Assembly (NCBI GenBank): GCA_028280785.1
Contig: JANQLF010000122.1
Location: forward strand, 23,627-87,626
DNA length: 64,000 bases
From: Planctomycetota bacterium
GTDB taxonomy: Bacteria; Planctomycetota; UBA11346
Direction of reading: 5' to 3'
Part shown: positions 21,077-60,514 of the stretch, piece after piece
Layout: each line of letters begins with the position of its first letter
How positions within the stretch are numbered: the stretch's first letter is position 1
Program-made: the position numbers and the translations under genes
Notes under the pieces: generated by a model
What the model was told of the DNA's origin: nothing
Seen by the model: the letters and a program-made list of their open reading frames with translations, nothing else
The model's database searches: none

Positions 21077-21412
21077 GACAGCTTTCCTTATTTAAAACAA
21101 TTGTTCGGCCCACCAGGACCACCAAGTAAGACGGACAAGGTGTCCGCGTTTTGGCGCTGATAGACCCAAAACCAGAGTGCTAGAGAGCAACTTGGGCACC
21201 AAGACCACTTGGGACACAAGATAAAAAGCAGAGTACGGTGCTGGGGAAAGGCAGCACCCAAAGTCTTGCCAGTTTTTTTGTTCTTTGCCTTCCTCAGAAG
21301 TGGACGCGGTGGGCAAGGTGTCCAACCCCACACGGAAGCATTTCTGCTGGGAAAAATACACAAAAGCCATGGCCACTTTGCGGCTCGTGCAAAGTGGCCA
21401 GGGTGGACAACG

Positions 21413-22214: not shown

Positions 22215-22235
22215 AATTTCTCCTTAGTTACAGGG

Positions 22236-22601
22236 TTAATTGATTGATCTGTTTGAATGGTGCTTCTTATACCAAGCAGCAGCATCGGACTGGTCGATGA
22301 GCCAGATTGACTTGCCGCCAGACTCGACTTTTTCTCCATGCAACTGCCCTGAGTTAAGAGCGTCGTATACAACCTTACGCTTAAGCTTGTACATCTTCCG
22401 GACCTGGGCACCGGAAAGCTTGGTGCTGCGGTTTGCCACGCAGTCCTCGATGAGCCCCGGCAGATCTCTGTAGATCGACTCACGCAATGACGTATGCTCT
22501 GCCTTAAGAGCTAATGCGAATTGCTGAAGGGCTGCAATTATTGAAGTTAATGGCTGATGAAATGGATCATCTGATTTACAACGGCGGTTGTTCATGGTCA
22601 T
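22236..22601 (-). CDS. AlpA/excisionase-like DNA-binding protein
   Basis: 121 aa; C-terminal KLSGAQVRKMYKLKRKVVYDALNSGQLHGEKV...IWLIDQSDAAAWY resembles MerR/AlpA-type HTH with winged tail. Confidence 0.4.
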   Translation of the reverse strand: MTMNNRRCKSDDPFHQPLTSIIAALQQFALALKAEHTSLRESIYRDLPGLIEDCVANRSTKLSGAQVRKMYKLKRKVVYDALNSGQLHGEKVESGGKSIWLIDQSDAAAWYKKHHSNRSIN

Positions 22602-22664
22602 GAGTGGAGGTCATACAGACGACAACTACATTGGCTAAACCCAATCCCAAAAGAGACGCCGGAA

Positions 22665-23735: not shown

Positions 23736-23867
23736 CTAGTGTCAAAGCTGAGTTGATTTGACACTTTAAATCTGAGTCAGAATTATTTTACATGCAGAAA
23801 TGTATTTATAGATAAATTGCGGAGTAAATCGCAGAATCTATAATTCATTTCAATCGGAATTAGTAAA

Positions 23868-25037: not shown

Positions 25038-25049
25038 CACTGACTTGCT

Positions 25050-28000: not shown

Positions 28001-30080
28001 AAAACAAGAGAACCTTAAAGAAAAATACATGAAAGAAATTCATGCAAATGAAATTGTTTTACTAGCCTATTACATAGCCGCCATAAATATTGAATCGGTT
28101 TATTATAGCATCGTTGGCGGCGAGCATAAGACCTTCAATAACATATGCCTAACAGATACTTTTCAGCTGCATGAAAAAGATGATACCATAAGCGGTTTAT
28201 TGGAAGACAATAGCGACAGAAGGATTAAGCAAAAAAAATTAGACATAAGGGTGATTATGGGCAACCCACCCTATTCAGCAATACAATCGAGCGAGAATGA
28301 TAACAACAAAAAAACTGGTTACCCAAATCTTGACGGGAGAATTCGAGATACATTCGCGCTTGGCTCAAGCGGTGTACTCAAAAATGCCTTGTATGACTCA
28401 TATGTAAGAGCAATGAGATGGGCGATAGATCGTATCGGCAATAAAGGTATTATAGGATTTGTAACTGGCAGCGCCTGGATTGACAGGACATTTGCCGATG
28501 TGATGAGAAAATGCTTGGCTGAAGAATGTACAAGCATTTACATAGTGGACCTAAGGGGCGATATTAGAAAAAATATGCTAAGTAAGGGAGCAGCAAAGCA
28601 GGGAGGCAATATATTTGGGTCAAGCAGCATGACTGGGATCGCCGTTACATTTTTTGTTAAAAACCCTTCTTCATCTAAAAAGAGCAAGATCTACTATTTA
28701 GATATTGGTGAAGATCTTAGCAGTGAGGACAAATTAAATGAGTTATTGCGCCTTAAGAGCTGCAATAATATTTCGGAATTAGGTCTTTGGTCTGAGTTGA
28801 TCCCGGATAAGTATAACGATTGGATTAATCAACGTGACGACAAGTTTGAGTCATACCCGGTCATTGGGAGCAAGAAAAAAGACTCCGGGGTGACTATTTT
28901 CAATGTATATTCGGGCGGCGTAAAAACCAATCGCGATGCATGGTGCTATAATTTCTCTCGAGAATCTGTCGCACATAATATGTCTAATATGGCCGATTTT
29001 TACAACAGTGAGATGATGAGGTACAAAAAACATTGTGAGCGCACCCCCAAGGATCGGAGGACTCCGGTTGATGAATTTATAGATAACAACCCTAAAAACA
29101 TTAGCTGGACAAGAGAATTAAAGAGAGATCTTTTGAATGGAAAAGATCGCCCCTATAATGAATCCGCTATTAGAATGGCACATTATAGACCATTTATAAA
29201 ATGCTGGATGTATTTTGATAGATACTATAACAACTGTATTTACCAGATGCCTAAATTATTCCCGAATCCAGATTCTGCCAATAAGATAATTTGTGTCTCC
29301 GGTATTGGGTCCAGGAGCGGATTTTCTGCTTTAATGGTTGATGCCGTTCCTTGCTTGGACATGATCGAAAAAGGGCAGTGTTTCCCAATTATTCAATATA
29401 AAGAAAGTGAAGAATCTACACAAACAACTTTCATAAACCAAGAAAATTCTACTGAAATTCCTGCTATCACCAGCGAGGGACTTGAGTATTTTCGTAGGAA
29501 TTTGACGGAAATTGAAGTGGATGAAAGTGATGTCTTTTACTATGTCTATGGATTACTTCACAGTAGAGACTATGTGAAAAAATTTGGGAAAAACCTCATA
29601 AAGGAACTGCCTAGAATTCCATGCCCCAAAGAATCTGATGACTTTAAAACATATTCAGTTAACGGAAAGAAACTTTCTGAATTACATCTAAACTATGAAT
29701 CAGTAGAGTGTTATCCTGCTAAAATTGAGACATCTGTTGATAGACTTAGACCCGATCATTACCTAGTCGATAAGATGAAGTTTAAAACCAAAAAAGACAA
29801 GACCATTATTGTGTACAATGAGTTTATCACAATAAATGGGATTCCTGAAAAAGCGTACGATTATCTGGTCAGCGGCAAACCCGCCATAACCTGGGTGATG
29901 GAGAGACAGTCTAAATCAGTTGACAAAAAAAGTGGAATCGTAAATGATGCGAATAATTGGGCTACTGACACAATTGGTAACCATAAGTATCCCCTAGAGT
30001 TACTTCTGCGTGTCGTCACTGTCAGCTTGCAAACACTGAACATTATTGACGATCTACCAAGCATCGAATTTATTGATTGA
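25050..30080 (+). CDS. Type ISP restriction-modification enzyme (Mrr-like nuclease + SF2 helicase + N6-adenine MTase + TRD in one polypeptide)
   Basis: 1676 aa (start may be 25212). N-terminal PD-(D/E)xK Mrr-like block (GIDLVAK...IQCK). Helicase Walker A ACGTGKTFT and DEAH box LIICDEAHRT. Gamma-class MTase GNPPYS (NPPY). Long C-terminal target-recognition region. Architecture as in LlaGI/LlaBIII. Confidence 0.8.
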   Translation: MTLVQVSTVGYSEDWEEGLSAPVLLIHLAIAKASLDLRHSRDRIPHVTLSCRLRMYYMSALSDLLDDYRNKSQTEREKGTYFEELIRTYFRFEATYKDLYSDVWLYSDWAKEQGLDQRDTGIDLVAKTHATNEFHAIQCKCFAEDYKVQKKDIDSFFTASGKKPFSHRIIVTTTNLWSEHADDSLRDQQLSVNKIDLHDLENSQIDWAKYKSDNKPILKKKKTLRRHQETALSNVVSGLNKADRGKLIMACGTGKTFTSLKIAEQMAGKGKRVLFLVPSLSLLSQTLTEWTQQSETPMHNFAVCSDSAVGKKRKKDDDIVQTFMHELRYPATTDPKRLAGEMKKRHDDQHMSVVYSTYHSIEVINQAQKNHALDDFDLIICDEAHRTTGATFEDESESNFVKIHDSGFIKSKKRLYMTATPRIYGDSAKATAEKDNVAICSMDDEKLYGKELHVITFSESVKLGLLTDYKVIVLSIDEEHVSSRIQNLLKDDNNQLKVDDAAKIIGCWKALSKQGMEEDLILDPKPMKRSVAFCQVIDPKSGRSHKVSSKQISSMFQEVVEAYQEQEEEHNTLICEARHIDGSMNASEKTEKIDWLKSEPAEDTSHILSNVRCLSEGVDIPALDAVLFLTPRNSQIDVVQSVGRVMRNADGKNKGYVILPVVIPMGMTPSEALNDNKVYKVVWEVLQALRSHDDRFDAMINKLDLIGKDTSKMEVIAITDKVQRKAKKKKKQAGKGSSTIGSPDLNNIPTQMDIQFEVGEVERALYAKVVKKCGNRNHWEDWAKDIAKIAKTHIARITTIIRDKSNKIERKSFFAFAEELRDDLNDSITDDEVIEMLSQHLITKPVFDALFKDYSFANNNPVSQAMQQVLDTLQEHRLDKETDTLDRFYSSVQLRAEGIDSAEGKQRIILELYDKFFRNAFPRMTERLGIVYTPVEVVDFIIHSVNDLLKSQFKQTLNNQGVHIIDPFTGTGTFVTRLLQSGLIKQENLKEKYMKEIHANEIVLLAYYIAAINIESVYYSIVGGEHKTFNNICLTDTFQLHEKDDTISGLLEDNSDRRIKQKKLDIRVIMGNPPYSAIQSSENDNNKKTGYPNLDGRIRDTFALGSSGVLKNALYDSYVRAMRWAIDRIGNKGIIGFVTGSAWIDRTFADVMRKCLAEECTSIYIVDLRGDIRKNMLSKGAAKQGGNIFGSSSMTGIAVTFFVKNPSSSKKSKIYYLDIGEDLSSEDKLNELLRLKSCNNISELGLWSELIPDKYNDWINQRDDKFESYPVIGSKKKDSGVTIFNVYSGGVKTNRDAWCYNFSRESVAHNMSNMADFYNSEMMRYKKHCERTPKDRRTPVDEFIDNNPKNISWTRELKRDLLNGKDRPYNESAIRMAHYRPFIKCWMYFDRYYNNCIYQMPKLFPNPDSANKIICVSGIGSRSGFSALMVDAVPCLDMIEKGQCFPIIQYKESEESTQTTFINQENSTEIPAITSEGLEYFRRNLTEIEVDESDVFYYVYGLLHSRDYVKKFGKNLIKELPRIPCPKESDDFKTYSVNGKKLSELHLNYESVECYPAKIETSVDRLRPDHYLVDKMKFKTKKDKTIIVYNEFITINGIPEKAYDYLVSGKPAITWVMERQSKSVDKKSGIVNDANNWATDTIGNHKYPLELLLRVVTVSLQTLNIIDDLPSIEFID

Positions 30081-30177
30081 AGCGTAATTGAAATATGACA
30101 TACACATCCAGGACTGTAAAAAATGTAAATTTAAATGACATGCCGTAACCTTACAGTCCTCAACATATATTTCCCTT

Positions 30178-30225
30178 CTTGCCATGCTGTAGGTCGTGAG
30201 TTCGAGTCTCATCACCCGCTCCAAA
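30178..30225 (+). repeat. attR: 48 bp copy of tRNA-Gly 3' part
   Basis: Exact copy of 12075-12122. Confidence 0.85.
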
Positions 30226-30226
30226 G

Positions 30227-30262
30227 AAAAAGCCCTTCGATTATTCGAAGGGCTTTTTCTTT
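30227..30262 (+). terminator. rho-independent terminator (probable original tRNA-Gly terminator)
   Basis: AGCCCTTCG-ATTAT-CGAAGGGCT perfect hairpin followed by TTTTT. Confidence 0.7.
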
Positions 30263-34672: not shown

Positions 34673-35965
34673 GTGGCTGAACAAATCGATAGTGCCCCCG
34701 TCAAAGGTGTTCGTGATTTCTATCCCGATGACATGCGCGTGCGCAATTGGTTGTTTGAGCATTGGCGTGCAGTAGCCAAGCAATTTGGCTATGAAGAGTA
34801 CGATGCTTGTGTGCTCGAATCTGAATCGCTGTATGTGCGTAAGGCTGGTGATGAAATAGTTGGTCAACTATATAATTTTGCTGATAAAGGTGATCGTAAG
34901 GTTGCATTGCGACCAGAAATGACACCAAGTTTGGCACGTATGGTTTTAGCCAAGAAAAATAGTTTAGCCTTTCCACTGCGTTGGTTTTCCATTCCACAAT
35001 GTTTCCGTTACGAACGCATGCAAAAAGGTCGTAAACGTGAGCACTTTCAATGGAATATGGATTGCATCGGTTTAGACAGCGTTGCCGCAGAGGTCGAGTT
35101 AATGTCTGCGCAGGTGGCATTTTTACAGAATGTCGGTTTCCAAGTCAGTGCAGAGAAATGTGACATCGCATTTAAAGTTTCAAATCGTCAGGTCCTCCAG
35201 GATTATTTAGCAACATTAAATATCACTGGCGAAGATTTTGCCGCGGTCTGTGTCATTATCGATAAGCGTGATAAAATTGGTGATGAAGCTTGCGCTGAAT
35301 TATTGGCAGAAAAAAATGTCGATGGAGAAACTGCAGGGAAGATCCTCGATTTATTAAATGTTCGTGGGCTCGACGATTTAGCACGGGTAGCAGGCGAGGA
35401 AAATGCCGGTTATCAATCATTAAAAGCATTAATGGAATTAGCAGAAGCAAGTGGTATTGCTCATGCCATTCAAATCGATTGTTCTGTGGTGCGCGGTCTG
35501 TCGTATTATACCGGAACCGTCTGGGAATTATTCGATGAATCTGGATCGGTGCCACGCGCCATCGCCGGTGGCGGTCGCTATGATCGTTTAATGGAAACCT
35601 TTGGTGGCCAATCAGTGCCAATGGTAGGTTTTGGTTTTGGTGATGTGGTTATTGCATTATTGCTCGAAGAGCGCGGACTTATTCCTAACTCCGATGCACG
35701 TGTTGATGATTATATTTATCCAATGAATGAATCGGGTTTTGTTATTGCCAATAAAATTGCTGCAAAGCTTCGCACAGATGGTCAGAAAGTTTTAGTCGAT
35801 TATTCCTGTCGCCGCTTCAAACACGTGATTAAAGCGGCAGAAAACGCAGGCGCATCACGGATGTTTACCCTAGGTGATCAAGAAATTGAAGCGGGTATTG
35901 TTAAGGTTCGTACCATTGGTGCCGAACGCGTAGAAAACGACCATCCAATTTCAGAATTTACCTAG
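34673..35965 (+). CDS. hisS: histidine--tRNA ligase
   Basis: 430 aa; GVRDF, motif 2 FRYERMQKGRKREHFQWNMD and class II motif 3 region; GTG start at 34673 (in-frame ATG at 34652 is also possible). Confidence 0.85.
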   Translation: MAEQIDSAPVKGVRDFYPDDMRVRNWLFEHWRAVAKQFGYEEYDACVLESESLYVRKAGDEIVGQLYNFADKGDRKVALRPEMTPSLARMVLAKKNSLAFPLRWFSIPQCFRYERMQKGRKREHFQWNMDCIGLDSVAAEVELMSAQVAFLQNVGFQVSAEKCDIAFKVSNRQVLQDYLATLNITGEDFAAVCVIIDKRDKIGDEACAELLAEKNVDGETAGKILDLLNVRGLDDLARVAGEENAGYQSLKALMELAEASGIAHAIQIDCSVVRGLSYYTGTVWELFDESGSVPRAIAGGGRYDRLMETFGGQSVPMVGFGFGDVVIALLLEERGLIPNSDARVDDYIYPMNESGFVIANKIAAKLRTDGQKVLVDYSCRRFKHVIKAAENAGASRMFTLGDQEIEAGIVKVRTIGAERVENDHPISEFT

Positions 35966-36089
35966 TGTCGCTGTTGCTGACGCCGAGTGACGGTCGTGGC
36001 TATTTGCCACGAATTTTTCATAGCGAAAGCGGAGAAAAATAGAAACGACAAAGTCAGCGAGGGGCTTGGGGCATTGCCCCAAAACAAAA
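35966..36089 (+). repeat. REP-like repeat family member (124 bp copy)
   Basis: Homologous along its length to 44847-44957 and to the right half of 48800-49096; ends with hairpin GGGGCATTGCCCC then AAAACAAAAG. Confidence 0.6.
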
Positions 36090-36131
36090 GGACGTATTGA
36101 GAAAGATCATCAAATTAGCGAATTCTCTTAA
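36090..36131 (+). other. orphan diverged copy of hisS 3' end (14 codons incl. stop)
   Basis: Translates GRIEKDHQISEFS* versus native AERVENDHPISEFT*; several identical residues use different codons (Ser TCA vs AGC). Confidence 0.5.
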
Positions 36132-36142: not shown

Positions 36143-36259
36143 TCTCACGGAGGCACGGAGCCACAGAGGGATTAAAAAATTGTGTTTATTTATATAAGTT
36201 ACCTTTTGTTTTGACGATTTAGATGGGAAATGCTTTTAAATCTCCGTGCCTCTGTGAGA
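36143..36259. repeat. 18 bp inverted repeat pair separated by 81 bp
   Basis: TCTCACGGAGGCACGGAG at 36143-36160 and CTCCGTGCCTCTGTGAGA at 36242-36259 (1 mismatch); right arm ends 7 bp from AraC-family gene stop. Confidence 0.5.
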
Positions 36260-39412: not shown

Positions 39413-39493
39413 TTAGCGTTGAAATCGTCGTTCTAACTCTGTCCACGATAGATCTAATGTGGTCGGACGACCATGCGGACAATGTTCCATGTG
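39413..39493 (-). other. orphan recoded copy of mutL 3' end (26 codons + stop)
   Basis: Minus-strand translation HMEHCPHGRPTTLDLSWTELERRFQR* is identical to the MutL C-terminus; 17 of 81 nt differ from 39597-39677, all synonymous. Confidence 0.8.
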
Positions 39494-39596
39494 GCTTTTT
39501 GTTTCGAGACTCCGTCTCGGGCTCTGCGCCTTAAAATATCTCAAGAGCCAAGCTCATTATTGAAATATTTTAATGCTTCACGAACACATGGAACGT
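39494..39596 (-). repeat. REP-like repeat family member (103 bp copy)
   Basis: Reverse complement ends ...GGCGCAGAGCCCGAGACGGAGTCTCGAAACAAAAAG, homologous to the ends of the other copies; contains CAATAATGAG motif. Confidence 0.55.
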
Positions 39597-41417
39597 TTAT
39601 CTTTGAAACCTGCGCTCTAGCTCGGTCCAACTTAGGTCTAATGTTGTCGGTCGCCCATGTGGACAATGTTCCATGTGTTCTAACGTATATAATAATTTGA
39701 CTAGGTTGCGTTGTTCGGCTTCGGAGAGTTTATCGCCAGCTTTGACGGCGCGGTGACAGCTGGCGCTGTGAGCAATGCGTTTACGAATGGCTTCGATGCT
39801 TTTGTCTTTATTGCCATCTTCGGCCATGCTTTCGAAAAAACCTTGCCAATTTATTTTTTTCAAAGCGAGCGGATGGGAGCGTAATAAAATAGTGGTTGGA
39901 CCAAAACATTCGGCTTCGATGCCATGTTCACCCAGACTTTCCAATAGCGGCTCAAGCACAGCAACTTCTGCAGCGCTTAATTCAATATTCTTAGGAACCA
40001 ATAATTCCTGACGCCCACTGCCTTCAAAGTCGGTGACGCTGGGGTCTAAACACAAAAATATGGATTTTTCATGGAGGGCATGTTGATCGACTAAGCGAAT
40101 GCCGAGCTCGGTTTCAATGAGCAAATACATATCATTTAATTGTACAATGCGACGAATGCCGGGTAGGTCATCATTACTGTCGACAGCGTAGGTGCTTTGT
40201 TGTTCAGCAACGGTACTGGTGTCGATGGTTTCTTGTGCTGGCATTTGTGGGACGAAGCGCTCTTGTAGTGCTTCTTGCTGATCTTCTGCTGCTTTAACCA
40301 CCGTACGTTTTACAATGTCATCGCCGCTTGTTACCGGTGAGTTCGGTGCAACGGGAGGTGGGCTCGTTAATTCAGGCGCTGCTGCGGTGTGCAGCATATT
40401 GAATCCACCACTGTTTTTTTCGAGAACTTCACGGATGGCATTGCGTAATATTTTAAATATCTCTCGATCATTGCGGAAGCGAACTTCTGCCTTCGTTGGA
40501 TGCACATTCACATCAATCAATTTTGGATCAGTGTCGATGTGAATAAAAACTGGCGGGTGTAGGCGTGGTTCCAAAAAACCACGATATGCTTCGCGAATGG
40601 CTGCAATGATTAATTTGTCTTTAATATAGCGACCGTTTAAAAAAACGAACTGTCGCTTGGCGCGTGGCTTCGCTTCGCTTGGGTGTGATGCGTAACCGGT
40701 TATTTGCGTGGTATAGCTGTGTCCGTCTATGGCAAATAATTGATCGGTAACATTTTTACCAAATATCGCTCGAATGCGTTGTCCAAGGTGATCGTGAACA
40801 GGCAAGTCGTGAATGACTTTATCGCCGGCAATTAATTCAAAGGCAATGTGCGGATGACTTAAAGCCATGCGCTGAACCACATCGGTAATATGACCAGCTT
40901 CAGCGCTTGGAGATTTGAGGAATTTTAATCGCGCAGGTACATTCCAAAATAAATTTCGAACCGTAACCTTCGTGCCCGGGGCCATGGAACAGGCTTGGAC
41001 ATCTTGAATCTCGCTGCCATGCACGCGCAGCGCATAACCACTGTCATTGTCATGGGTACGGCTGGCAATTTCAAATTCAGAAACAGCAGCAATAGAAGGC
41101 AGTGCTTCGCCGCGAAATCCTAAAGAGTTTATGGCAAACAAATCGTCAGCTGCTTGTAGTTTTGAGGTGGCATGCCGACTCAGGGCGAGAGGTAAATCAT
41201 CTTTGTTGATGCCGTGACCATTATCGGCAATGCTTAATAAATGCTGACCACCATCAGCCATGTGAATGGTGATTTGTGTAGCCCCTGCATCGATACTGTT
41301 TTCAATAAGTTCTTTGGCGACAGCAGCTGGGCGTTCAATGACTTCGCCAGCAGCAATCTTATTGGCGATGTCATCACTGAGTTGATGAATCTGCGGTGGT
41401 TTAGTCTTCAATGTCAT
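39597..41417 (-). CDS. mutL: DNA mismatch repair protein MutL
   Basis: 606 aa; GHKL ATPase blocks (ELIENSIDAGA, DNGHGI), C-terminal dimerisation domain. Confidence 0.85.
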   Translation of the reverse strand: MTLKTKPPQIHQLSDDIANKIAAGEVIERPAAVAKELIENSIDAGATQITIHMADGGQHLLSIADNGHGINKDDLPLALSRHATSKLQAADDLFAINSLGFRGEALPSIAAVSEFEIASRTHDNDSGYALRVHGSEIQDVQACSMAPGTKVTVRNLFWNVPARLKFLKSPSAEAGHITDVVQRMALSHPHIAFELIAGDKVIHDLPVHDHLGQRIRAIFGKNVTDQLFAIDGHSYTTQITGYASHPSEAKPRAKRQFVFLNGRYIKDKLIIAAIREAYRGFLEPRLHPPVFIHIDTDPKLIDVNVHPTKAEVRFRNDREIFKILRNAIREVLEKNSGGFNMLHTAAAPELTSPPPVAPNSPVTSGDDIVKRTVVKAAEDQQEALQERFVPQMPAQETIDTSTVAEQQSTYAVDSNDDLPGIRRIVQLNDMYLLIETELGIRLVDQHALHEKSIFLCLDPSVTDFEGSGRQELLVPKNIELSAAEVAVLEPLLESLGEHGIEAECFGPTTILLRSHPLALKKINWQGFFESMAEDGNKDKSIEAIRKRIAHSASCHRAVKAGDKLSEAEQRNLVKLLYTLEHMEHCPHGRPTTLDLSWTELERRFQR

Positions 41418-41668: not shown

Positions 41669-42412
41669 TTAAAGTGGGGCGAATTCTTCGCCTTCCTTGT
41701 GTAGATGCGTAAGCCGTCTACCGAGAGAAACAATGTACAGAAGGATGAAATAGGCGATGTAGCACTCTTTCAGTTCTTGCACTTCATTAAAATAAAAGTC
41801 TAAACCAAACCAATCTTCAATTTTAGAAGGCCAAGTTGAAATGGTGGTGATGACAGCCGTTGGCAAGCAAACCCAGGTCGGCCATAGCCACCAAAATCGT
41901 CTGGTGTGATGAACGCGCCACGCTTTGTAGTAAAATAAAAGCGGGATGAATACACCACCTACAAAGACGAGTAACGATACCACGCCTTTTGGATGTCGGT
42001 CAAACCATTCTGAGGTGTTGTGAATATTGGTTTCTTTTTGGTCATTATGCTCAAGAAAGAATTCGCTAGTTTCCCAGCCAAACCAATGTTGTCCCCAGCT
42101 TGCTTCTTCACCAGCAAAATAAATGCAGCCAAGGCAATAGAGAACCAGAAATATTTTCAAGAAAAGATGTAGTGATTTACCAAAACGAACAATGATGCTC
42201 ATGGTACATACAAGGGCAAAAAGCAGGAAAATAACTGTTAAATTTTCAATGATTCCTAATTCATGTTGAAGATAGGATTCTATGCCTTTTTTTGCTGTAC
42301 CAAAAAAGTGAGCGACATAACGAAACACATAAAATAGTATCGGCAGATGTAACCACCAAAACATATTTATTTCATGGTTAATGGAGTCGTCAGTAAGCTC
42401 GGAATCACTCAT
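41669..42412 (-). CDS. polytopic membrane protein, paralog A
   Basis: 247 aa; shares GIIENLTV and GEE.SWGQH.FGW.T.E blocks with adjacent paralog. Confidence 0.55.
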   Translation of the reverse strand: MSDSELTDDSINHEINMFWWLHLPILFYVFRYVAHFFGTAKKGIESYLQHELGIIENLTVIFLLFALVCTMSIIVRFGKSLHLFLKIFLVLYCLGCIYFAGEEASWGQHWFGWETSEFFLEHNDQKETNIHNTSEWFDRHPKGVVSLLVFVGGVFIPLLFYYKAWRVHHTRRFWWLWPTWVCLPTAVITTISTWPSKIEDWFGLDFYFNEVQELKECYIAYFILLYIVSLGRRLTHLHKEGEEFAPL

Positions 42413-42415
42413 AGT

Positions 42416-43159
42416 TTAGGCTGCTGTATTAGAATCTGAGACAGCATCATCTTCATTCTCAGGGTGTAGGCGCAAGAATAATGTGACGATGAAAATGAGG
42501 AAAAAGAGCGTAACCATGCATTCTTTGATTTCGGCAATGTTGCCGGGGTGAGGAATTTTAAAGCCAATTTTACTTAGTCGCTGAGGGAGTGTGATAACAA
42601 AAGAAAGCAAGCCTACCGATACACAGGTAAAAGAAGGCCATAACCACCACATTTTTTTATCGCGATCGCTGTGTAATTTTTTGTACTTAAACCAGCGAAA
42701 GAGTGGCATAAGACCACCAAAAATAAATATGAGGGCACTTAATACTGTTCGTGCTTTATTACCGAATCCATTAATGTTGTGAAGATTTGTTTCCTGCTGT
42801 TTATTAATGGCAGCAAGTGACTCTGGTGTTTGCCAACCGAAAAAATGTTGACCCCAGCTGAGTTCTTCGCCGGCTATGACGAAGCAACCAAGAGCAAAAC
42901 AGACAAGAAATCCTTTAAGTAGTTTATCGCTAGTGAACTGACCTTTTCTAAACAAAATAATTATGGGTATGATAGCAATTACTGCGAATAGGACGGTAAG
43001 ATTTTCGATTATGCCAAATTCACCATGCATGAATGAATTGAAATTACGCACAACTTTCAGCTTATGGAGAATGAAGTAACTGAAGTAGACGATACAGAGG
43101 ACTATGGGTACCCACAGCCACAACCATTTGGGTACTAGGAGTTGATCGTCTCGTTGCAT
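42416..43159 (-). CDS. polytopic membrane protein, paralog B
   Basis: 247 aa, same length and motifs as paralog A, 3 bp apart. Confidence 0.55.
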   Translation of the reverse strand: MQRDDQLLVPKWLWLWVPIVLCIVYFSYFILHKLKVVRNFNSFMHGEFGIIENLTVLFAVIAIIPIIILFRKGQFTSDKLLKGFLVCFALGCFVIAGEELSWGQHFFGWQTPESLAAINKQQETNLHNINGFGNKARTVLSALIFIFGGLMPLFRWFKYKKLHSDRDKKMWWLWPSFTCVSVGLLSFVITLPQRLSKIGFKIPHPGNIAEIKECMVTLFFLIFIVTLFLRLHPENEDDAVSDSNTAA

Positions 43160-43250: not shown

Positions 43251-44846
43251 ATGATTACTGCTTCAGAAATCACCGTCGCCTTTGGCGAAAAGCCACTCTA
43301 TGAAAATGTTAGTCTGCGCTTAACCGCAGGTAACTGCTATGGTTTTATTGGTGCAAATGGCTGCGGTAAAACGACCTTTATCAAGGTACTGTCTGGTGAA
43401 ATGGAGCAGAACGCAGGTACGGTCACCTTGGATCCCGGCATGCGTATGGCCACCTTAAAGCAAAATCAATTTGGTTATGAAGATCAAAAAGTCATGGATG
43501 TGGTTTTGCAAGGTTATGAAGAAGTATGGCAGTTGCAGTTGGATATGGACGCCTTGTATGCTAAAGAAGATTTTTCTGATGCTGATGGTGAGAAAGTTGC
43601 AAAGTTACAAGAACGCTACGATGAATTAGATGGCTATTCGCAAGAATCGAATGCCGCTGAAGTATTAACCAATCTTGGTGTGAGCCCTGATGTACATAAC
43701 AGTGCGATGTCTGAAATAGATGCCACGTTGAAGGTGCGTGTTTTATTAGCTCAAGTAATTTTCTCGCGGCCAGATGTATTGTTGCTCGACGAGCCAACTA
43801 ATAACTTGGACATTGAAACCATCGCCTGGCTTGAAAAATTCTTGGCAGATTACGAAGGTTGTATTGCCGTAGTGAGCCATGACCGACACTTTTTAAACCG
43901 TGTTTGTACCCATGTCTGCGATGTTGATTTTCAAACAATCCGAACATTTGTTGGGAATTGGGATGTATACGCAGCATCCGAAGCACTTGCTCGTGCGCAG
44001 CGCAGTAAAGAAAAAGCACGTGTTGATAAGCAAGTGGAAAAATTAAAGAGCTTTGTCCAGCGTTTTAAAGCCAATGCATCGCGTTCGAAGCAAGCGACGA
44101 GTCGTATGAAGCAAATCGACGCACTCGGTTCACAACAAGTCTTACCATCAAGTCGCGTGGCTCCGCGTATTAATTTTAAACAAGAACGTGAAAGTGGTCA
44201 GGATATTATTAAAGCTGAAGGCCTCAGTTTTAAATACGATGATGGTCCCGAAATTTGTAATGATTTAGATCTGCGCTTGGAAAAGGGTGAGCGCTTGGCG
44301 ATTGTTGGTCGTAACGGTATTGGTAAAACCAGTATTATTAAATTGCTCAATAATGAATTAACACCGCAAGCAGGATCAGTGACCCTTGGTGGAACCATTA
44401 AAGTCGGTTACTTCCCACAAGACAGTCGTCATCTGTTTGAAAAAGACATCGATATTGTGACGTGGTTGCAGCAGTTCACGGACAACCAGGACATCAATAA
44501 CATGCGCGCGATGCTCGGTCGCATGCTCTTCTCGGGTGACGATGTGAAGAAATCGGTAACTGTGCTTTCGGGTGGTGAAAAGGTGCGTTGTTTGATGTCG
44601 ATGCTGATGCTTCAAGAAGCCAACTTGCTGATCTTAGACGAACCGACTAACCACTTGGATTTGGAATCGATCGAAGCTCTCCAGGAAGCCTTGGAAGAGT
44701 TCAAAGGTAGCATCATCTTTGTCAGCCATGACCGTGAATTCGTTGACCACGTCGCCAGCCGCGCCCTGGTTATGACCGACGAGGAGGGCATCGTCGATTG
44801 GCGAGGTACTTACTCTGAATACCGCGACTCAAAGGGCCTGGATTAG
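43251..44846 (+). CDS. ABC-F family ATPase (EttA/Uup-like, two ABC domains, no TMD)
   Basis: 531 aa; two Walker A (GANGCGKTT, GRNGIGKTS), two signatures (LSGGEKVR...), inter-domain linker. Confidence 0.8.
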   Translation: MITASEITVAFGEKPLYENVSLRLTAGNCYGFIGANGCGKTTFIKVLSGEMEQNAGTVTLDPGMRMATLKQNQFGYEDQKVMDVVLQGYEEVWQLQLDMDALYAKEDFSDADGEKVAKLQERYDELDGYSQESNAAEVLTNLGVSPDVHNSAMSEIDATLKVRVLLAQVIFSRPDVLLLDEPTNNLDIETIAWLEKFLADYEGCIAVVSHDRHFLNRVCTHVCDVDFQTIRTFVGNWDVYAASEALARAQRSKEKARVDKQVEKLKSFVQRFKANASRSKQATSRMKQIDALGSQQVLPSSRVAPRINFKQERESGQDIIKAEGLSFKYDDGPEICNDLDLRLEKGERLAIVGRNGIGKTSIIKLLNNELTPQAGSVTLGGTIKVGYFPQDSRHLFEKDIDIVTWLQQFTDNQDINNMRAMLGRMLFSGDDVKKSVTVLSGGEKVRCLMSMLMLQEANLLILDEPTNHLDLESIEALQEALEEFKGSIIFVSHDREFVDHVASRALVMTDEEGIVDWRGTYSEYRDSKGLD

Positions 44847-44957
44847 AAATCTATTCCAGACGCCGAGAGCCGTTCAGGCCTACTTGGCCTGACATTTTCG
44901 TAGATAATGAGGATCGACAAAGTCTGCGGGGTCCGGGGCAGAGCCCCGAAACAAAAA
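44847..44957 (+). repeat. REP-like repeat family member (111 bp copy)
   Basis: Hairpins CAGGCCTACTTGGCCTG and CGGGGCAGAGCCCCG; ends AAACAAAAA; homologous to 35966-36089 and 48970-49096. Confidence 0.6.
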
Positions 44958-45005
44958 AGGCGTGGTACATATTCTGAATACCGCGACTCAAAAGGCTTGG
45001 ATTAG
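44958..45005 (+). other. orphan recoded copy of ABC-F gene 3' end (15 codons + stop)
   Basis: Translates RRGTYSEYRDSKGLD* versus native WRGTYSEYRDSKGLD*; 5 synonymous differences (CGA/CGT, ACT/ACA, TAC/TAT, AAG/AAA, CTG/TTG) around a 20 bp identical core. Confidence 0.75.
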
Positions 45006-45084
45006 AGGGTAAGTAAGCCCGAAGCTGCAGTCCAGTAGTTGCTTAGGTTGGATTTGAACTAGCATCTCGCCTCCACTGATTGAG

Positions 45085-45513
45085 GTGGCAAAGGAAGGAC
45101 GAGCTATGAAGCGCATAATAGCACTGTCGGCTATGACGAGTACCTACGTGATGGGTGCCGGTGAAGATCTCACTGCACCAGTTCCAGCAGGACCAGAAAA
45201 CGGTCAGGACCAAAGCCAACAAGCACCGGGCGGAATGGGTTTCCCATTCTTCATGCTCATTTTGATGTTGGTCTTCATGTACTTCGTCTTGATTCGTCCA
45301 CAAAATAAAGAGCAGCGTCGTCGTCGTGGTATGATGGATGATCTCAAGGTTGGTGACATGGTCGTGACCATCGGTGGTCTCCATGGTGAGGTTGCGCGCA
45401 AAGGTGAGAACGACATAGATCTCAAAGTCGCTGAAAATACAGTCATGACCTTTAACCTTGGTGCGGTTAACCAGGTGGTTAAAGACGGCGAAAAATTAAA
45501 CGGTCAAGAATAG
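45085..45513 (+). CDS. yajC: preprotein translocase subunit YajC
   Basis: 142 aa (GTG start; may start later); FVLIRPQNKEQRRRR...KVGDMVVTIGGLHGEV typical YajC. Confidence 0.7.
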   Translation: MAKEGRAMKRIIALSAMTSTYVMGAGEDLTAPVPAGPENGQDQSQQAPGGMGFPFFMLILMLVFMYFVLIRPQNKEQRRRRGMMDDLKVGDMVVTIGGLHGEVARKGENDIDLKVAENTVMTFNLGAVNQVVKDGEKLNGQE

Positions 45514-48799: not shown

Positions 48800-49096
48800 G
48801 TTTCGAGGGGCTCTGCCCCTCGTGCTCCCCCGCGACGGTTGCACGGTCAAGCCGCATCAAGATCGCGACTATTTTTCTCCGTTTAGAACTGCGAAAAATC
48901 CAGGTCAAGTAGACCTGACCGTCGCTCGGTCGTAGCCGGTTGCAGAAGCAACCGAAGAGCGCGCCGAGTTCTCGAGGCGGCGAGCACCGATGAATGGTCT
49001 GAGCTATATGCGAAGAATTTTTCGTAGCGTCAGCGTAGAAAAATAATGAAGACAACGCTCGCGGGGGAGCCCGAGGGGCAGAGCCCCTCGAAATAA
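48800..49096 (+). repeat. full-length BIME/MITE-like element with 35 bp terminal inverted repeats
   Basis: TTTCGAGGGGCTCTGCCCCTCGTGCTCCCCCGCGA at 48801-48835 versus reverse complement of 49059-49093 (1 mismatch). Several internal hairpins. Fills the exact interval between the secDF stop and the convergent regulator stop. Confidence 0.65.
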
Positions 49097-58084: not shown

Positions 58085-60490
58085 ATGATGAAGCGTCAAT
58101 TGACCATGGTAGCCACCATGACAGCAATGTTGTGTTGGCCTGCTTTACAAGCAGAAGAAGCTCAACCTAAACCAAAGACAGCAGCGGAGTTGCTTGAAGA
58201 AGTTGGCAACGAAGCGGACCTCGATACCTCAGCACGTTATGCCCAAGCCGATGCAGCCTATGTGCAAGCTAAGGCCTATTACGATGCAACGCGTTTCCAA
58301 GAAGCGAAAAAAGAAATCGACCGTGCTATTCGTTTATTTCCAGAGCACAAATTAGCGCAGCAATTGCGTAATAATATTTATTCGGTTTTAGGTAAGCGCG
58401 GTAACGCTTTACAGCAATTGGCGACCTACGCTAACATGCAACAAAATGTTGCGCTCCAAGAGCAAGCAGTGCGCATGATTCGCATGCTCAACGAAGGCGA
58501 TGAATTTTTTGCTGCTGGTGATTATGCCAATGCCTTTGACCGTTACGATCGTGTATCGATTCAAATGCGTACGTTTACCTATCGTTTTGACTGGGGTGAA
58601 TTACCAAAAGAAGTTGAACGTAAATTACGCATGGCCGAAGCTAAAATTCGTGAAGAAGATTTGGATCGTACCAATCAAGCACGTGCGAAAGCGTTAGCCT
58701 TACAAAAAGAAAAGACCCAAATGCAAGAGCAGGCTCTTGCACAAAAAGTTAATCAAATTTTATACCGTGCTGCACAAGCCTATAATCGTCACGATTTTTC
58801 TCGTGCGCAAACCTTAGCATGGGATGCCTATGAAATGGATCGCCGCCGCGAAGATGCGCGTAGCATGTACTTACGTGCGCGTCGTGCCGGTCACGTTCAA
58901 TTCGAAGATTATATTCGTGAAGAGCGCGCTGAGCGTTTAGCACGTGTGAATGAAGAAATGCATCAGACTTTAATTCCACAAGTCGATGTGTTGCTGTATC
59001 CTGAAGATTGGTTCAAGAAATCATTGCGTAAGCCAACAGAGTTGGGCGACGATACCGAAGAGCCATGGGTACAGGTTTTACGCGACCGCTTAGATGAAGT
59101 GGTAACGGTTAACTTTGAAGACACACCACTTGAAGATGCGATTGCCTTTTTGCGTAATCAGACCGGTGTGAACTTCATTATTGCTAACGAAATTTTTGAA
59201 AGCGATCCTCCACCAATCACGCTGCGCGCTACCAACATGAAGCTGCGCACAGCACTGAAGTGGATTTTAGAAGTTACTGATTTGAAAATGGCTATTCGTG
59301 ATGAAGCAATTTTCATTTCAACTGAAGATGTACGTGGCGATATTTTACTGCGCATGTACGACATCAGTGACTTAACTTCTCCAGTTCGTGACTTCCCAGG
59401 TCTTGAGCTTGCTTACAACGCTGCTGGTACTTCTGGCGGTGGTGCAAGTTTATTCGCTGATGCTGGCTTTGATGATGATGAAGGCGGTATCGACCCTGAA
59501 GAAATTGCTGACTTTATTCAAGAAAGTGTGGCGATTGATTCTTGGGATGAAGACGGTGTTGGTATCACAACCCGCGCTGGTGGTACGCTCTTTGTGAGCC
59601 AAACCAGTGAAGTTCATGATTTAATTGGTCAATTATTGGTGAGCTTGCGTAACCAGCAAAGCTTGCAGGTGCATTTACAAATTCGTTTACTTGATGTGAC
59701 CAAAGGCTTCTTCGAAGAAATTGGTGTTGATTGGACGATTGCGAATGACAACCGCAGCGCTGAGTTCCTTGGCTCATCTGATAACAACTTGCCACCACGT
59801 CGAACCACCAACGGTTTCGATCCACAGTTAACTGGTTTATTTTATACACATGACTTGAACTACGATGGCTCGTTTGACTTACCACAGGTTAATGCGCTGT
59901 TAATTGCTGCTGAGTCTGAAAACGATTCACAAATCTTAGAAGCGCCAGAAATCACCTGCTTTAATGGTCAACGTGCAAACGCGACCTTTGTTAACCAATT
60001 CGCCTATATCTTTGACTATGACGTGCAAACTGGTTCTGGTGGTAACGGTACACTCGACCCACAAATTCGAATCTTGAATTTTGGTACGCTACTCGACGTA
60101 CGCCCAGTTGTGTCTTCTGACCGTAAATACATCACCATGGAAGTTCGCCCATCATCAGCGATTTTATTACGTACCGATATCGCTCAGTTGGTTGCATTAA
60201 CCACCGTTGCGAACTTTGGTGTGTCGCTGTTCTTACCAATCGAATTGCCAGTTATCGAAATTCGTACCATGCGTTCGACCGTGATGTTGCCTGATAAAGG
60301 TACCTTGGCGATCGGTGGCTTTACCAATGCGGTACGTCAACGTTCACACGCCGGTATTCCATTCTTGGCACACATTCCGTTCTTAGGCCGTCTCTTCGGT
60401 CGTAACGGTGTCTACGATGATAACCGTCGTCTCTACTACTTGCTGACTGCTGAGATCATTGACCTCGCAGAACGCGAGTCGCTGAACTAA
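58085..60490 (+). CDS. secretin (PilQ/GspD family) with N-terminal signal peptide, TPR/coiled-coil region and STN-like domain
   Basis: 801 aa; STN-like VNFEDTPLEDAIAFLRNQTGVNFII; C-terminal secretin block IRTMRSTVMLPDKGTLAIGG...GIPFLAHIPFLGRLFG. Confidence 0.7.
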   Translation: MMKRQLTMVATMTAMLCWPALQAEEAQPKPKTAAELLEEVGNEADLDTSARYAQADAAYVQAKAYYDATRFQEAKKEIDRAIRLFPEHKLAQQLRNNIYSVLGKRGNALQQLATYANMQQNVALQEQAVRMIRMLNEGDEFFAAGDYANAFDRYDRVSIQMRTFTYRFDWGELPKEVERKLRMAEAKIREEDLDRTNQARAKALALQKEKTQMQEQALAQKVNQILYRAAQAYNRHDFSRAQTLAWDAYEMDRRREDARSMYLRARRAGHVQFEDYIREERAERLARVNEEMHQTLIPQVDVLLYPEDWFKKSLRKPTELGDDTEEPWVQVLRDRLDEVVTVNFEDTPLEDAIAFLRNQTGVNFIIANEIFESDPPPITLRATNMKLRTALKWILEVTDLKMAIRDEAIFISTEDVRGDILLRMYDISDLTSPVRDFPGLELAYNAAGTSGGGASLFADAGFDDDEGGIDPEEIADFIQESVAIDSWDEDGVGITTRAGGTLFVSQTSEVHDLIGQLLVSLRNQQSLQVHLQIRLLDVTKGFFEEIGVDWTIANDNRSAEFLGSSDNNLPPRRTTNGFDPQLTGLFYTHDLNYDGSFDLPQVNALLIAAESENDSQILEAPEITCFNGQRANATFVNQFAYIFDYDVQTGSGGNGTLDPQIRILNFGTLLDVRPVVSSDRKYITMEVRPSSAILLRTDIAQLVALTTVANFGVSLFLPIELPVIEIRTMRSTVMLPDKGTLAIGGFTNAVRQRSHAGIPFLAHIPFLGRLFGRNGVYDDNRRLYYLLTAEIIDLAERESLN

Positions 60491-60514
60491 TAGACTGTAA
60501 AAGGTTTTCGTTTA

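Follow-up and report, generated by a model that had tools for sequence, protein, structure and literature searches.

The window, which is the whole stretch of 64,000 nucleotides that we analyzed, contains a gene for an ABC-F family ATPase whose 3' end is present twice, on either side of a structured repeat that we call E (Table 1). Homologs of this gene have two ABC_tran domains as well as ABC_tran_Xtn and are named ABC-F. The first copy of the gene end (X1) reads TGG CGA GGT ACT TAC TCT GAA TAC CGC GAC TCA AAG GGC CTG GAT TAG and encodes WRGTYSEYRDSKGLD and the stop; the second copy (X2) reads AGG CGT GGT ACA TAT TCT GAA TAC CGC GAC TCA AAA GGC TTG GAT TAG. Five differences between them are all synonymous (CGA/CGT, ACT/ACA, TAC/TAT, AAG/AAA, and CTG/TTG), and the first codon, which is the edge of the repeat, is TGG in X1 and AGG in X2 (W to R). 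A repeat search detected the two copies as direct repeat pair D6 (48 nt, 90% identical, spacing 159). A sequence-only reading of the window had described this layout at these positions, and it held when we read the sequence directly. That reading itself proposed no mechanism.

Table 1. Features discussed in the text, in window coordinates.
Feature	Positions	Strand	Evidence
ABC-F family ATPase gene (531 aa), the host gene	43251..44846	+	ORF list; domains and names of homologs
ABC-F X1, first gene-end copy (last 15 codons and TAG), the working end	44799..44846	+	sequence; ORF; repeat pair D6
20-bp core TCTGAATACCGCGACTCAAA, identical in ABC-F X1 and X2	44814..44833 and 44973-44992	+	read from the sequence
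Repeat element E at ABC-F (111 bp, structured, REP/MITE-like)	44847..44957	+	nhmmer E = 5.6e-25 to 5e-19; fold
Inner hairpin P2 (TCAGGCC-TACTT-GGCCTGA) then CATTTTCG, terminator-like in the sense orientation	44874..44892	+	consensus terminator scan
Terminal GC hairpin P4 (44934-44948) and single-stranded A-rich tail GAAACAAAAA (44949-44957)	44934..44957	+	alignments; fold; GC/AU covariation in P4
ABC-F X2, second gene-end copy (RRGTYSEYRDSKGLD and TAG)	44958..45005	+	sequence; repeat search; C-terminus scan; substitution statistics
Inverted pair of plain E copies, no duplicated gene ends	48800..49096	48800-48936 (-), 48975-49096 (+)	copy census
hisS layout: X1 35924-35965 (ERVENDHPISEFT and stop), E 35966-36089, X2 36090-36131 (GRIEKDHQISEFS and stop)	35924..36131	+	C-terminus scan; nhmmer; ortholog comparison
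mutL layout: X1 39597-39677, subfamily-E2 insert 39494-39596, X2 39413-39493	39413..39677	-	repeat pair D1; C-terminus scan; relatives

E is an asymmetric unit of several hairpins. The copy at ABC-F folds into a closing stem (44859-44868 with 44923-44933), two inner hairpins, a terminal hairpin, and a tail. E folds have z = -2.3 to -5.1, with compensatory changes at 6 of 9 consensus pairs. The remaining E copies have the same GC hairpin as P2, followed by (A)ATTTTT. In the sense orientation, E supplies a terminator-like hairpin; the consensus match is met, and the function is inferred from sequence alone. The insert of the mutL-type subfamily had no match in the consensus terminator scan. P4 and the A-rich tail, which directly adjoin X2, are the best-conserved part of both subfamilies. 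E also contains GTAG (in TTTTCGTAG) and GACG (the complement of CGTC), and it is not established that these act as tags. At gathering thresholds, the sole match to Rfam in the whole window was a tRNA, with no family for the insert, and a permissive scan of 44700-45150 gave only noise and no intron or ribozyme family.

We found about 19 copies of E in the window and nine close-clade loci, arranged as head-to-tail arrays, inverted pairs, and single copies. The ends of E are sharp, with tandem units abutting directly, and the copies end 1-17 nt from stop codons. In the plain copies, which have no duplicated gene end, the A-rich tail lies 1-10 nt from an antisense stop in 6/6 cases. For instance, in the inverted pair of the window, each tail lies 1 nt from a stop codon, that of either secDF or the convergent gene. 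Genes around the units include yajC, secDF, an araC-like gene, and membrane proteins. About 12 of the 19 copies lack a duplicated gene end, so the duplicate is not an automatic by-product of each insertion. We looked for direct repeats flanking the plain copies and found none, and the left junctions and flanks of E share no target-adjacent motif.

A scan of a genome collection with TTTTCRYAGN{25,55}GGGGCANNGCCCC gave 116 matches from unrelated phyla, all apparently by chance: this pattern is too permissive, and the best nhmmer E-value was ~2e-4, as compared to 1e-25 or better for the window copies. Two tight patterns had no matches among viral contigs. A metagenome scan based on MutL yielded just five loci, all distant and high in GC, and the layout was absent from each.

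E is probably moved by a REP-associated Y1 transposase. In the relative L127, the mutL stop codon is directly followed by a gene for a RAYT (NF047646, 83.3 bits; cut-off 80), which is flanked by tail-like motifs; nhmmer found no full E copy beside it. The link to RAYT rests on this one relative, and a cognate RAYT has not been demonstrated. Among the 29 window ORFs that we scanned (of 40 with at least 150 aa), none encodes a Y1 transposase, and none encodes TnpB, IscB, or another RNA-guided nuclease. We also found no reverse transcriptase in the window ORFs scanned. The inserts (103-124 bp) contain no ORF, and there is no recombinase or transposase in or beside the unit.

The layout is not confined to ABC-F. 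We scanned, at the protein level, the end of every window ORF of at least 100 aa for a downstream repeat of its own C-terminus. Exactly three genes have one: mutL (score 155), ABC-F (75), and hisS (46). All other scores were 35 or less, except for one of 42 that was caused by the E family itself. At these three genes the repeat sits between two full versions of the gene end, each with 13-26 codons and a stop. The duplicates are 39-48 nt (ABC-F), 42 nt (hisS), and 81 to ~95 nt (mutL), with X1-X2 spacings of 159, 166, and 184 nt, and two of the three end at the stop codon. Across the loci, X1 and X2 are 60-90% identical, and the differences are only silent or ortholog-like. At mutL both copies encode HMEHCPHGRPTTLDLSWTELERRFQR and the stop; at hisS, every position at which X2 departs from X1 also varies among orthologs. 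The hisS insert is of the same family as E at ABC-F (nhmmer E = 3e-32; 65.5% identity over a 119-column blastn alignment). The mutL insert (E2) belongs to a related sister subfamily that has only the terminal hairpin and A-rich tail (~35 nt) in common with E. The insert has the same orientation at all three loci.

The units are patchily distributed relative to their hosts. The hisS duplicate was found only in the window, and the relatives L130 and L131 have plain E copies at the same spot. ABC-F relatives at 86%, 86%, 80%, and 76% identity lack the unit. The mutL layout is present in four lineages (the window, L002, L126, and L128), whose synonymous sites are saturated, and is absent from L127, even though its nearest relative, L002, has it. 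The inserts of L126 and L128 are 83% identical and their MutL proteins are 77% identical; insert similarity does not follow host similarity.

Because the source is a metagenome-assembled genome and the copies differ as two strains would, two co-occurring strains might have been joined via the repeat into a chimeric contig. We consider this to be all but excluded. The junction of the tail with mid-gene sequence requires real reads, and three such artefacts in 64 kb, all with identical polarity, are not credible. Moreover, the four mutL layouts come from different samples (the window contig, ERZ25074695, ERZ25043436, and ERZ23495666), and their contig-naming styles differ, which suggests different assembly pipelines.

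The three claims of the sequence-only reading (a REP-like insert, a recoded gene end, and a recurrent mechanism) all held, with two qualifications. Its REP-like insert is indeed a structured family that hugs stop codons, with a RAYT in a close relative. Its view of a recurrent mechanism rather than a coincidence is supported by three genes in 64 kb and by mutL in four lineages, and the latter, being independently assembled, also make misassembly, which would have refuted it, very unlikely. The shared orientation held as well. That all three loci have the same insert family was only partly right (hisS does, mutL has the sister subfamily), and a recoded gene end, for which that reading suggested testing each copy of the repeat, is missing from most copies. 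Its synonymously recoded gene end held, given the sequence, the mutL comparisons, and the substitution statistics that follow.

Within each genome, the mutL X1 and X2 differ at 11-17 nucleotides with no amino-acid changes; between lineages, the X2 copies differ at 15-20 of 81 nucleotides, again with none. These differences include serine switches (AGT/TCG and TCA/AGC) and arginine switches (AGA/CGC). Even if only half of the differences arose in an unconstrained copy, finding no changes would have a probability of 6e-4 or less (6e-5 or less in five of the six mutL comparisons, and 5.6e-4 in the L002 pair). With ABC-F alone, five substitutions placed at random would spare the peptide with P = 0.001, or with P = 0.07 if just two of the five were in an unconstrained copy. 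If the five synonymous differences of ABC-F X2 arose in place, then about 7 changes at non-synonymous sites would be expected and we see 0 (P ~0.001); this is our back-of-the-envelope estimate and not the result of a tool. Overall, the two versions of each gene end differ as alleles of diverged lineages do, by synonymous or ortholog-type changes only. The downstream copies are not decaying, which rejects a decaying target-site duplication; the cause of their preservation is unexplained.

The more ordinary scenario is that a long target-site or slippage duplication formed at insertion and then drifted, with the synonymous-only pattern due to chance or to changes in X1 only. The X-E-X geometry does match insertion at a staggered cut, and the ABC-F statistics, taken alone, are moderate. 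However, this scenario is rejected for mutL by the substitution statistics, the hisS changes are ortholog-like, and our rough estimate for ABC-F X2 speaks against it. Also, the absence of direct repeats around the plain E copies shows that long duplications are not a general product of the family, and a length of 39 to ~95 nt, with two of three ending at a stop codon, does not fit. We consider in-place duplication to be very unlikely.

The mutL copies have other features that bear on their origin. The junction is the same in three of the four lineages, with inserts that are 17-31% diverged, and X2 matches X1 exactly over its first 17-26 nt. In 10/10 pairs, third-position identity over the 60 codons that precede the duplicated segment rises to 0.78-0.81 (one-sided p = 0.05 to 1e-5, tested over the last 90 codons). 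This tract of high similarity ends where the duplicated segment starts and does not include X1. Near the gene ends of ABC-F, hisS, and secDF there is no such rise (their profiles are flat). The start of the duplicated segment of mutL forms a co-varying 13-bp stem with the sequence just after the stop, and this post-stop sequence could pair with either copy, which would give two alternative structures. The stem is real at mutL and is not general at the other loci. Finally, in three of the four lineages the tail is closely followed by the ATG of HMEH; L128 has lost this ATG and still keeps 19 of 20 residues.

One rival reading is that X2 is decoded or otherwise used by the host in place, and hence is under ordinary purifying selection. 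The route might be, for example, removal of X1 and the insert from the mRNA, ribosome bypass, re-initiation, or an RNA switch that senses translation. In favor of this, X2 changes at wobble positions only, which is a signature of decoding, and mutL has the two alternative pairings of the 13-bp stem and the ATG after the tail. Nevertheless, we consider in-place use to be very unlikely. The spacings of 159, 166, and 184 nt show that the frame is not conserved, and they lead us to reject read-through or frameshifting into X2. Relative to the tail, X2 is in different frames at different loci, and it lacks a usable start codon at ABC-F and hisS; on these grounds we also reject a small ORF made from an E-encoded N-terminus and X2. 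L128 retains its residues without the ATG, a terminator-like hairpin lies upstream of X2, nothing matches intron or ribozyme families, and both products would be the same protein, with no evident benefit.

We also considered intragenomic gene conversion as the force that preserves X2 and rejected it. The proportion of identical codons between X1 and X2 is about the same within genomes (47%) as between genomes (43%), and conversion that purged non-synonymous changes would homogenize silent sites too. Because synonymous sites are saturated, comparison to orthologs cannot identify the native copy, and codon usage was uninformative as to which copy is live or native.

The explanation that we prefer, which we doubt slightly more than we believe, is by analogy: the unit may be a miniature version, made by recombination, of the elements that integrate at 3' ends and carry a replacement end, such as e14 in icd or the islands in tRNA genes. 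Recombination between diverged lineages at a gene end would create the unit and later renew it. An incoming gene end with its repeat would be joined beside the resident gene end, with the exchange falling within the longest identical stretch; at ABC-F this would be the 20-bp core, which is a possible crossover segment by inference only. One copy would then terminate the working gene and the other would be the displaced end. If recombination between X1 and X2 removed the repeat, the displaced end would return to service, and selection would therefore screen both copies. The logic would be that of prophage e14 in icd and of the tRNA islands, with a passenger of only ~100 bp of non-coding DNA. 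In favor of this reading we count the recurrence of the layout, the second copies that stay intact as coding sequence, the ortholog-type changes at hisS, the patchy distribution of the units at ABC-F, hisS, and mutL, the raised third-position identity beside the mutL unit as a sign of exchange, the character of E as a defined mobile unit, and the precedent of e14.

Several observations count against the recombination reading. There is no recombinase in or beside the unit, with the RAYT link coming from one relative. We have neither a repeat-free allele from the same lineage nor an excision junction, which leaves turnover as an inference without direct observation. Sequences that are ~20% diverged over only 40-80 bp normally undergo homologous exchange very inefficiently. 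The shared mutL junction together with the divergence of the inserts fits a single old insertion; X2 would then need to have been maintained for a long time and not recently imported. And a simple model of co-conversion does not predict that the mutL tract would stop before X1.

Another possibility, which we think rather unlikely, is that X2 is a targeting module, retained for its use by the element in locating a target. X2 could be a portable homology arm or, by analogy with the omega-RNAs of IS200/IS605 elements, whose guide is read from the right flank, a guide transcribed from the 3' hairpin and A-rich tail. With a gene end as the target, itself constrained by its protein, the guide could vary only at wobble positions, which would mimic selection on the protein. 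A bolder form, equally unlikely, is that REP-like repeats invade conserved gene ends site-specifically and in a programmable way: X2, untranslated and matched to a constrained target, would evolve like coding sequence, and the recoded X1 would keep the host gene working while making the occupied site unlike the target. In support of a targeting module, X2 shows codon-like constraint without a plausible route to translation, the best-conserved part of the repeat is the terminal hairpin and the GAAACAAAAA(G) tail directly adjoining X2, and the tails of plain copies always adjoin a gene end (1-10 nt from an antisense stop, 6/6). Also, RAYTs descend from IS200-type transposases (bioRxiv 10.1101/2021.07.10.451892), and the guide RNAs of IS200/IS605 elements cleave vacant sites and drive the element's own retention (bioRxiv 10.1101/2023.03.14.532601, PMC8612924). 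On the other hand, we found no TnpB, IscB, or other RNA-guided nuclease among the window ORFs scanned, no Rfam match, and no target-adjacent motif at the left junctions. The first 17-26 nt of the mutL X2 match X1, so self-targeting is not avoided, and there is no clear route for acquiring a new gene end as the guide.

A third reading is that the units are remnants of classical integrase-dependent elements, either an attL/attR pair after loss of the interior or a mini-element of att arms that is mobilizable in cis. The insert family would then represent arm-type sites to which related integrases bind. Integrative elements at the 3' end of a gene have exactly this geometry, and the identical 20-bp core with differences on both sides resembles an att core. 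The window even contains a tRNA-Gly island, in which the 3' half of the tRNA is repeated 18 kb away and which has two integrase genes inside. But arrays, inverted pairs, and single copies without duplicates are the behavior of REPs or MITEs and not of att arms, it is implausible that three independent elements would shrink to the same ~100-125 bp, and the length of the duplicate varies from 39 to ~95 nt. We think this reading is unlikely.

In the literature that we searched, we found no description, for any repeat family, of intact spare gene ends that are preserved as coding sequence beside the repeat. If the spare ends are maintained, this would be the smallest known element to use a replacement-end strategy, and it would reside harmlessly in the housekeeping genes mutL, hisS, and an ABC-F factor. 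It would also join the REP/RAYT repeats, which are regarded as vertically inherited extragenic passengers, with site-specific integrative elements. Untranslated sequence under codon-like constraint is a rare and easily spotted signature, and genome-wide searches for it could reveal homing driven by recombination or by guides in uncultured bacteria. At gene ends, the units give rise to mosaicism of silent sites and to short pseudo-gene ends, which annotation pipelines and SNP-based strain analyses would misread.

It remains to compare the units to known systems. Diversity-generating retroelements also have a second copy of a gene's 3' end downstream, but we reject this type of element: the differences include T to A, T to C, and A to G, so they are not specific to adenine, and they are silent instead of diversifying, with no reverse transcriptase among the window ORFs scanned. 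CRISPR-associated transposons carry homing spacers against conserved gene ends. Like the units, they carry a copy of a conserved gene 3' end and insert just downstream. These transposons are tens of kilobases long, with tns and cas genes and 32-nt spacers in repeat arrays, and nothing of that kind is found at the units.

Bacterial MITEs (Correia/NEMIS, RUP, ERIC, and Nezha) resemble E in being ~100-150 bp, strongly structured, and adjacent to genes, with effects on transcripts (PMC3733652). The duplications made by MITEs have a short, fixed length, and young ones are identical. In contrast, the repeats here are 39 to ~95 nt, end at or near the stop codon, and have diverged only at silent sites. 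The units do not qualify as transposon target-site duplications, given the variable lengths, the absence of duplications at plain copies, and the 60-90% identity. Non-autonomous derivatives of IS200/IS605 share with E the subterminal hairpins, a hairpin at the right end with ~10 nt between it and the junction, and the lack of a short target duplication. The guide of an omega-RNA is read from the DNA that flanks the right end (10.1101/2023.03.14.532601, PMC8612924), and known guides are plain flank, not a second copy of an upstream gene end. We saw no tnpB among the window ORFs scanned, no conserved target-adjacent motif, and no Rfam match for E, which on this evidence does not fit the group.

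E does meet the description of a REP, that is, a short, structured, multi-copy extragenic repeat found mostly downstream of genes. Like REP/REPIN-RAYT systems and REPs tagged with GTAG/CGTC, it has many copies in arrays and inverted pairs, and a RAYT occurs in its clade (a cognate one is undemonstrated). REPINs consist of two REP units in inverted orientation with a spacer between them; E is not a simple pair of inverted REPs. REPs lie mostly just downstream of genes or between convergent genes, sometimes touching the stop codon (PMC3733652), and they can persist for a long time at orthologous sites (bioRxiv 10.1101/2021.07.10.451892). Neither of these papers mentions coding-preserved duplicated gene ends flanking REPs; in the text of PMC3733652, "duplication" and "target site" have 0 occurrences.

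The closest likeness is to the 3'-end integrators, such as e14 and phage 21 in icd, the islands in tRNA and tmRNA genes, and, as a further example, the tRNA-Gly island of the window. The units differ from these in that the passenger is 103-124 bp of hairpin-rich, non-coding DNA without an integrase, and in that E is multi-copy, is mostly without duplicated ends, and occurs as one family and a sister subfamily at three genes. Of two tests for att-type sites, one is met (each border has a direct repeat of the 3' end of the gene, and one of these repeats completes the gene) and the other, a recombinase that is encoded by the unit or demonstrably acts on it, is not. Prophage e14 is flanked by icd on one side and by icdC, a C-terminal fragment, on the other; its excision alters icd only at synonymous sites plus D417E and D429E, and the authors' model for e14 deletion also has a duplicated C-terminal stretch of 19 residues (PMC13626634). 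Like the units, these integrators have the working end on one side and a displaced, homologous end on the other, with synonymous or conservative differences around an identical core, and when the element is lost, the two ends recombine into a working chimera (PMC13626634).

At the ABC-F ATPase gene, the gene end (X1) is followed by a 111-bp insert and then by a second gene end (X2). X1 and X2 have five internal differences, all synonymous, and the repeat's edge is the first codon, which encodes W in X1 and R in X2. In a repeat search of the window, the pair spans 48 nt at 90% identity with a spacing of 159. The sequence-only reading had described this arrangement (coordinates, insert length, synonymous recoding, and an identical 20-bp core), and all of it held on direct reading. 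Neither the insert nor the second copy is present in four orthologs (86%, 86%, 80%, and 76% identity), so the unit is lineage-specific. Both window copies encode YRDSK; the relatives' residues there are RE, RA, or RS.

When we tested every ORF end in the window (ORFs of at least 100 aa) for a C-terminus that is repeated downstream, exactly three genes stood out: mutL (score 155), ABC-F (75), and hisS (46). The background was at most 35, plus a single 42 produced by the repeat family itself. At hisS, X1 (ERVENDHPISEFT, then stop) is followed by a 124-bp insert and X2 (GRIEKDHQISEFS, then stop). At mutL, X1 (HMEHCPHGRPTTLDLSWTELERRFQR, then stop) is followed by a 103-bp insert and an X2 that encodes the identical 26 residues and stop. 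Sixteen nucleotides separate these copies, with codon switches at Ser (AGT/TCG) and Arg (AGA/CGC and AGG/CGA) among the changes. All three inserts are oriented alike, with the 5' end toward the stop codon and the A-rich 3' tail leading into X2. The earlier claims of the same organisation and the same orientation at mutL and hisS both held. The claim of a single insert family held only in part: the hisS insert belongs with the ABC-F insert in family E, a REP/MITE-like structured repeat, and the mutL insert belongs to a sister subfamily, E2, whose resemblance to E is limited to the terminal hairpin and tail.

Positions of the features discussed (window coordinates unless a relative's locus is named)
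Feature	Position	Strand	Basis or detail
hisS gene	34673..35965		Pfam
mutL gene	39597..41417	-	
mutL 13-bp stem region	39582-39677	-	equivalents in L002, L126, L128
ABC-F ATPase gene, 531-aa ORF	43251..44846	+	ORF call, homologs
ABC-F X1	44799-44846	+	TGG CGA GGT ACT TAC TCT GAA TAC CGC GAC TCA AAG GGC CTG GAT TAG
ABC-F insert, 111 bp	44847-44957	+	read from sequence
ABC-F X2	44958-45005	+	AGG CGT GGT ACA TAT TCT GAA TAC CGC GAC TCA AAA GGC TTG GAT TAG
ABC-F 20-bp core	44814-44833 and 44973-44992		identical in X1 and X2
Inverted pair of E copies	48800-49096		between secDF and next gene
E arrays in L131	2750-3140 and 5040-5236		after hisS; after PhyH-family gene
RAYT gene	L127 4176-4775		directly after mutL stop, at the site of the E2 unit; region 4112-5400
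tRNA-Gly(GCC)	12044-12120		3' 58 nt repeated at 30178-30235, 95% identical
Island at tRNA-Gly(GCC)	12044-30235		~18 kb
Island TIR-domain protein	12791-13390		
Island tyrosine integrases	13767-14948 and 23868-25037		
Island ORF, 1676 aa	25050-30080		
117-bp element	36143-36259		12 nt after hisS X2
Two membrane-protein genes	41669-43159		between mutL and ABC-F
Three tandem paralogous genes	58085-64000		third cut by window end

The window also contains an inverted pair of E copies. E is predicted to form a closing stem that surrounds two hairpins; after it come an independent GC hairpin and an unpaired tail, GAAACAAAAA(G). Fold z-scores are -2.3 to -5.1, and compensatory changes across ten copies are seen at 6 of the 9 consensus pairs. 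The second hairpin plus (A)ATTTTT resembles a terminator in the sense orientation; this is a sequence match, and the function is inferred. The insert had no match in Rfam. Across the window and nine close-clade loci, we found about 19 repeat copies. Where the E tail faces a gene, it lies 1–10 nt from that gene's stop, antisense (6/6 cases); where the 5' end faces a gene, the stop codon is 2–17 nt away. Such placement is ordinary for REP-type repeats (PMC3733652). After hisS in the relative's locus L131, four E units stand head to tail without a gap (...GAAACAAAA/GCTCGCGCCGA...), which sharply defines E at both ends. L131 has a second head-to-tail array, of two copies; both arrays fill the post-gene space and are oriented opposite to the window's hisS copy.

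Two groups of paralogs in the window are tandem: the membrane-protein genes (247 aa) and three genes of ~800 aa each. The 117-bp element is bounded by 18-nt terminal inverted repeats (TCTCACGGAGGCACGGAG / CTCCGTGCCTCTGTGAGA), has a single copy in the window, and bears no relation to E.

The distribution of the units is patchy. At hisS, L130 (84%) has a plain E, without a second copy, in the same place and orientation as the window; L131 (83%) has its four tandem copies, inverted; and L132 (78%) has no E copy. The window, L002, L126, and L128 all carry the full mutL unit; their MutL proteins are 76–81% identical to one another in our own alignment (against the window's MutL, L126 and L128 reach 73–76% identity by BLASTP). 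In L128, X2 has 5 fewer codons and a single F-to-L change. L127 and L129 (58%) lack the unit. The sequence comes from an uncultured member of the Planctomycetota, and misassembly had been named as a possible refutation. Because the assemblies that show the mutL layout come from different samples, an artefact is very unlikely, and we give it the lowest weight of the alternatives.

The second copies show codon-like constraint. Intact mutL X2 copies encode an identical peptide, yet 15–20 of 81 nt differ among them, and each differs from its own X1 at 11–17 nt. Simulated random substitutions in those numbers left the peptide unchanged with P below 1 in 50,000; if only half of the differences arose in the unconstrained copy, P is still ≤6e-4 (≤6e-5 in 5/6 comparisons; 5.6e-4 for the L002 pair). 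At hisS, every difference between X2 and X1 falls at a position where orthologs also vary (RVENDHALSEFM, RIEHDVPIADLI, RIENEHSLSEFAD). ABC-F alone gives P = 0.001–0.07. Plain duplication followed by drift is very unlikely. The sequence-only reading had proposed checking whether a recoded gene end follows other repeats; in the inventory of the window and nine loci, plain copies lack flanking direct repeats. Because X2 does not decay and plain copies have no direct repeats, we reject a target-site duplication decaying in place. We likewise exclude frequent gene conversion within a genome, because X1 and X2 share identical codons at about the same rate within genomes (47%) as between them (43%). 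X1 and X2 resemble each other as diverged functional alleles do.

Could X2 function in place? We hold that reading unlikely. Translation of X2 there is unlikely, given spacings of 159, 166, and 184 nt, a frame relative to the tail that varies across loci, no start codon at two loci, and a terminator-like hairpin before X2.

At mutL, lineages are nearly saturated at four-fold sites (38–49% identical), and the inserts are 69–83% identical, with a similarity that does not track that of the hosts. Third-position identity rises from 0.45–0.6 to 0.78–0.81 in the 60 codons directly upstream of the duplicated segment and drops abruptly to 0.54 within it. The last 90 codons are more identical than the rest of the gene in 10/10 pairs (one-sided p = 0.05 to 1e-5). 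There is no rise against the outgroup L129, and the profiles of ABC-F, hisS, and secDF are flat. This local excess indicates that the DNA beside the unit was exchanged between lineages more recently than the genomes diverged, or that it is constrained at the nucleotide level; we cannot explain why the high-similarity tract ends where the duplicated gene end starts.

A ~100-nt tract, ~225–125 nt upstream of the mutL stop (window ~39720-39820, minus strand, and the corresponding region of L002, L126, L127, and L128), is almost identical in four lineages that are saturated at synonymous sites elsewhere. The window's version of the tract carries an intragenic palindrome, CGCCAGCT...AGCTGGCG. A co-varying 13-bp stem, in which GAACACATGGAAC pairs with GTTCCATGTGTTC, was seen at mutL alone and encloses X1 (last 22 codons): the EHMEH codons pair with sequence directly after the stop. 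In the window, a degenerate copy (TCCATGT) lies after the X2 stop.

L127 encodes a bona fide REP-associated tyrosine transposase (RAYT; NF047646, 83.3 bits, cut-off 80), with E-tail-like motifs, CGAAA(A)CAA(C/G)AAGCAAG, on both sides. A perfect inverted repeat of 28 bp (4116-4143 / 4607-4634) is also present, its second arm within the coding region. Any role of a transposase in forming the units is inferred. A possible but less favored reading has X2 serving to target the element, either as a homology arm or as a guide of the flank type known from IS200/IS605 omega-RNAs. Pfam scans covered 29 of the 40 window ORFs that reach 150 aa, and none encoded a Y1 transposase, TnpB, or a reverse transcriptase. 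The only recombinases in the same scan were two integrases, both inside the unrelated tRNA-Gly island, and it is unlikely that the units are remnants of integrase-driven elements. The island, a classical integrated one, also encodes a 910-aa AAA_21/SMC-like protein and a DUF927 protein.

We favor, by analogy and with rather more doubt than conviction, a miniature form of gene-3'-end integration with a replacement end. A REP-like passenger joined to the gene end of a diverged lineage would be placed beside the resident gene end; recombination between X1 and X2 would remove it, and cycles of loss and regain would expose both ends to selection. This recombination route and turnover are inferred. 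What force preserves the spare copy is the unexplained core of the finding.

Neither REP-type repeats beside stop codons nor integrative elements that bring a replacement gene end are new. The REP and REPIN literature that we examined does not mention a ~100-bp multi-copy repeat between long, coding-preserved host-gene ends, occurring at several housekeeping genes and in several lineages. The nearest known logic is that of e14, a prophage integrated in the 3' end of icd that brings a replacement end: it is bordered by icd on one side and an icdC fragment on the other, its excision alters icd only at synonymous sites and by two conservative substitutions, and the authors' e14 deletion model also has a duplicated 19-residue C-terminal stretch (PMC13626634). 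The tRNA-Gly island in the window is a second example of gene-3'-end integration with a replacement end.
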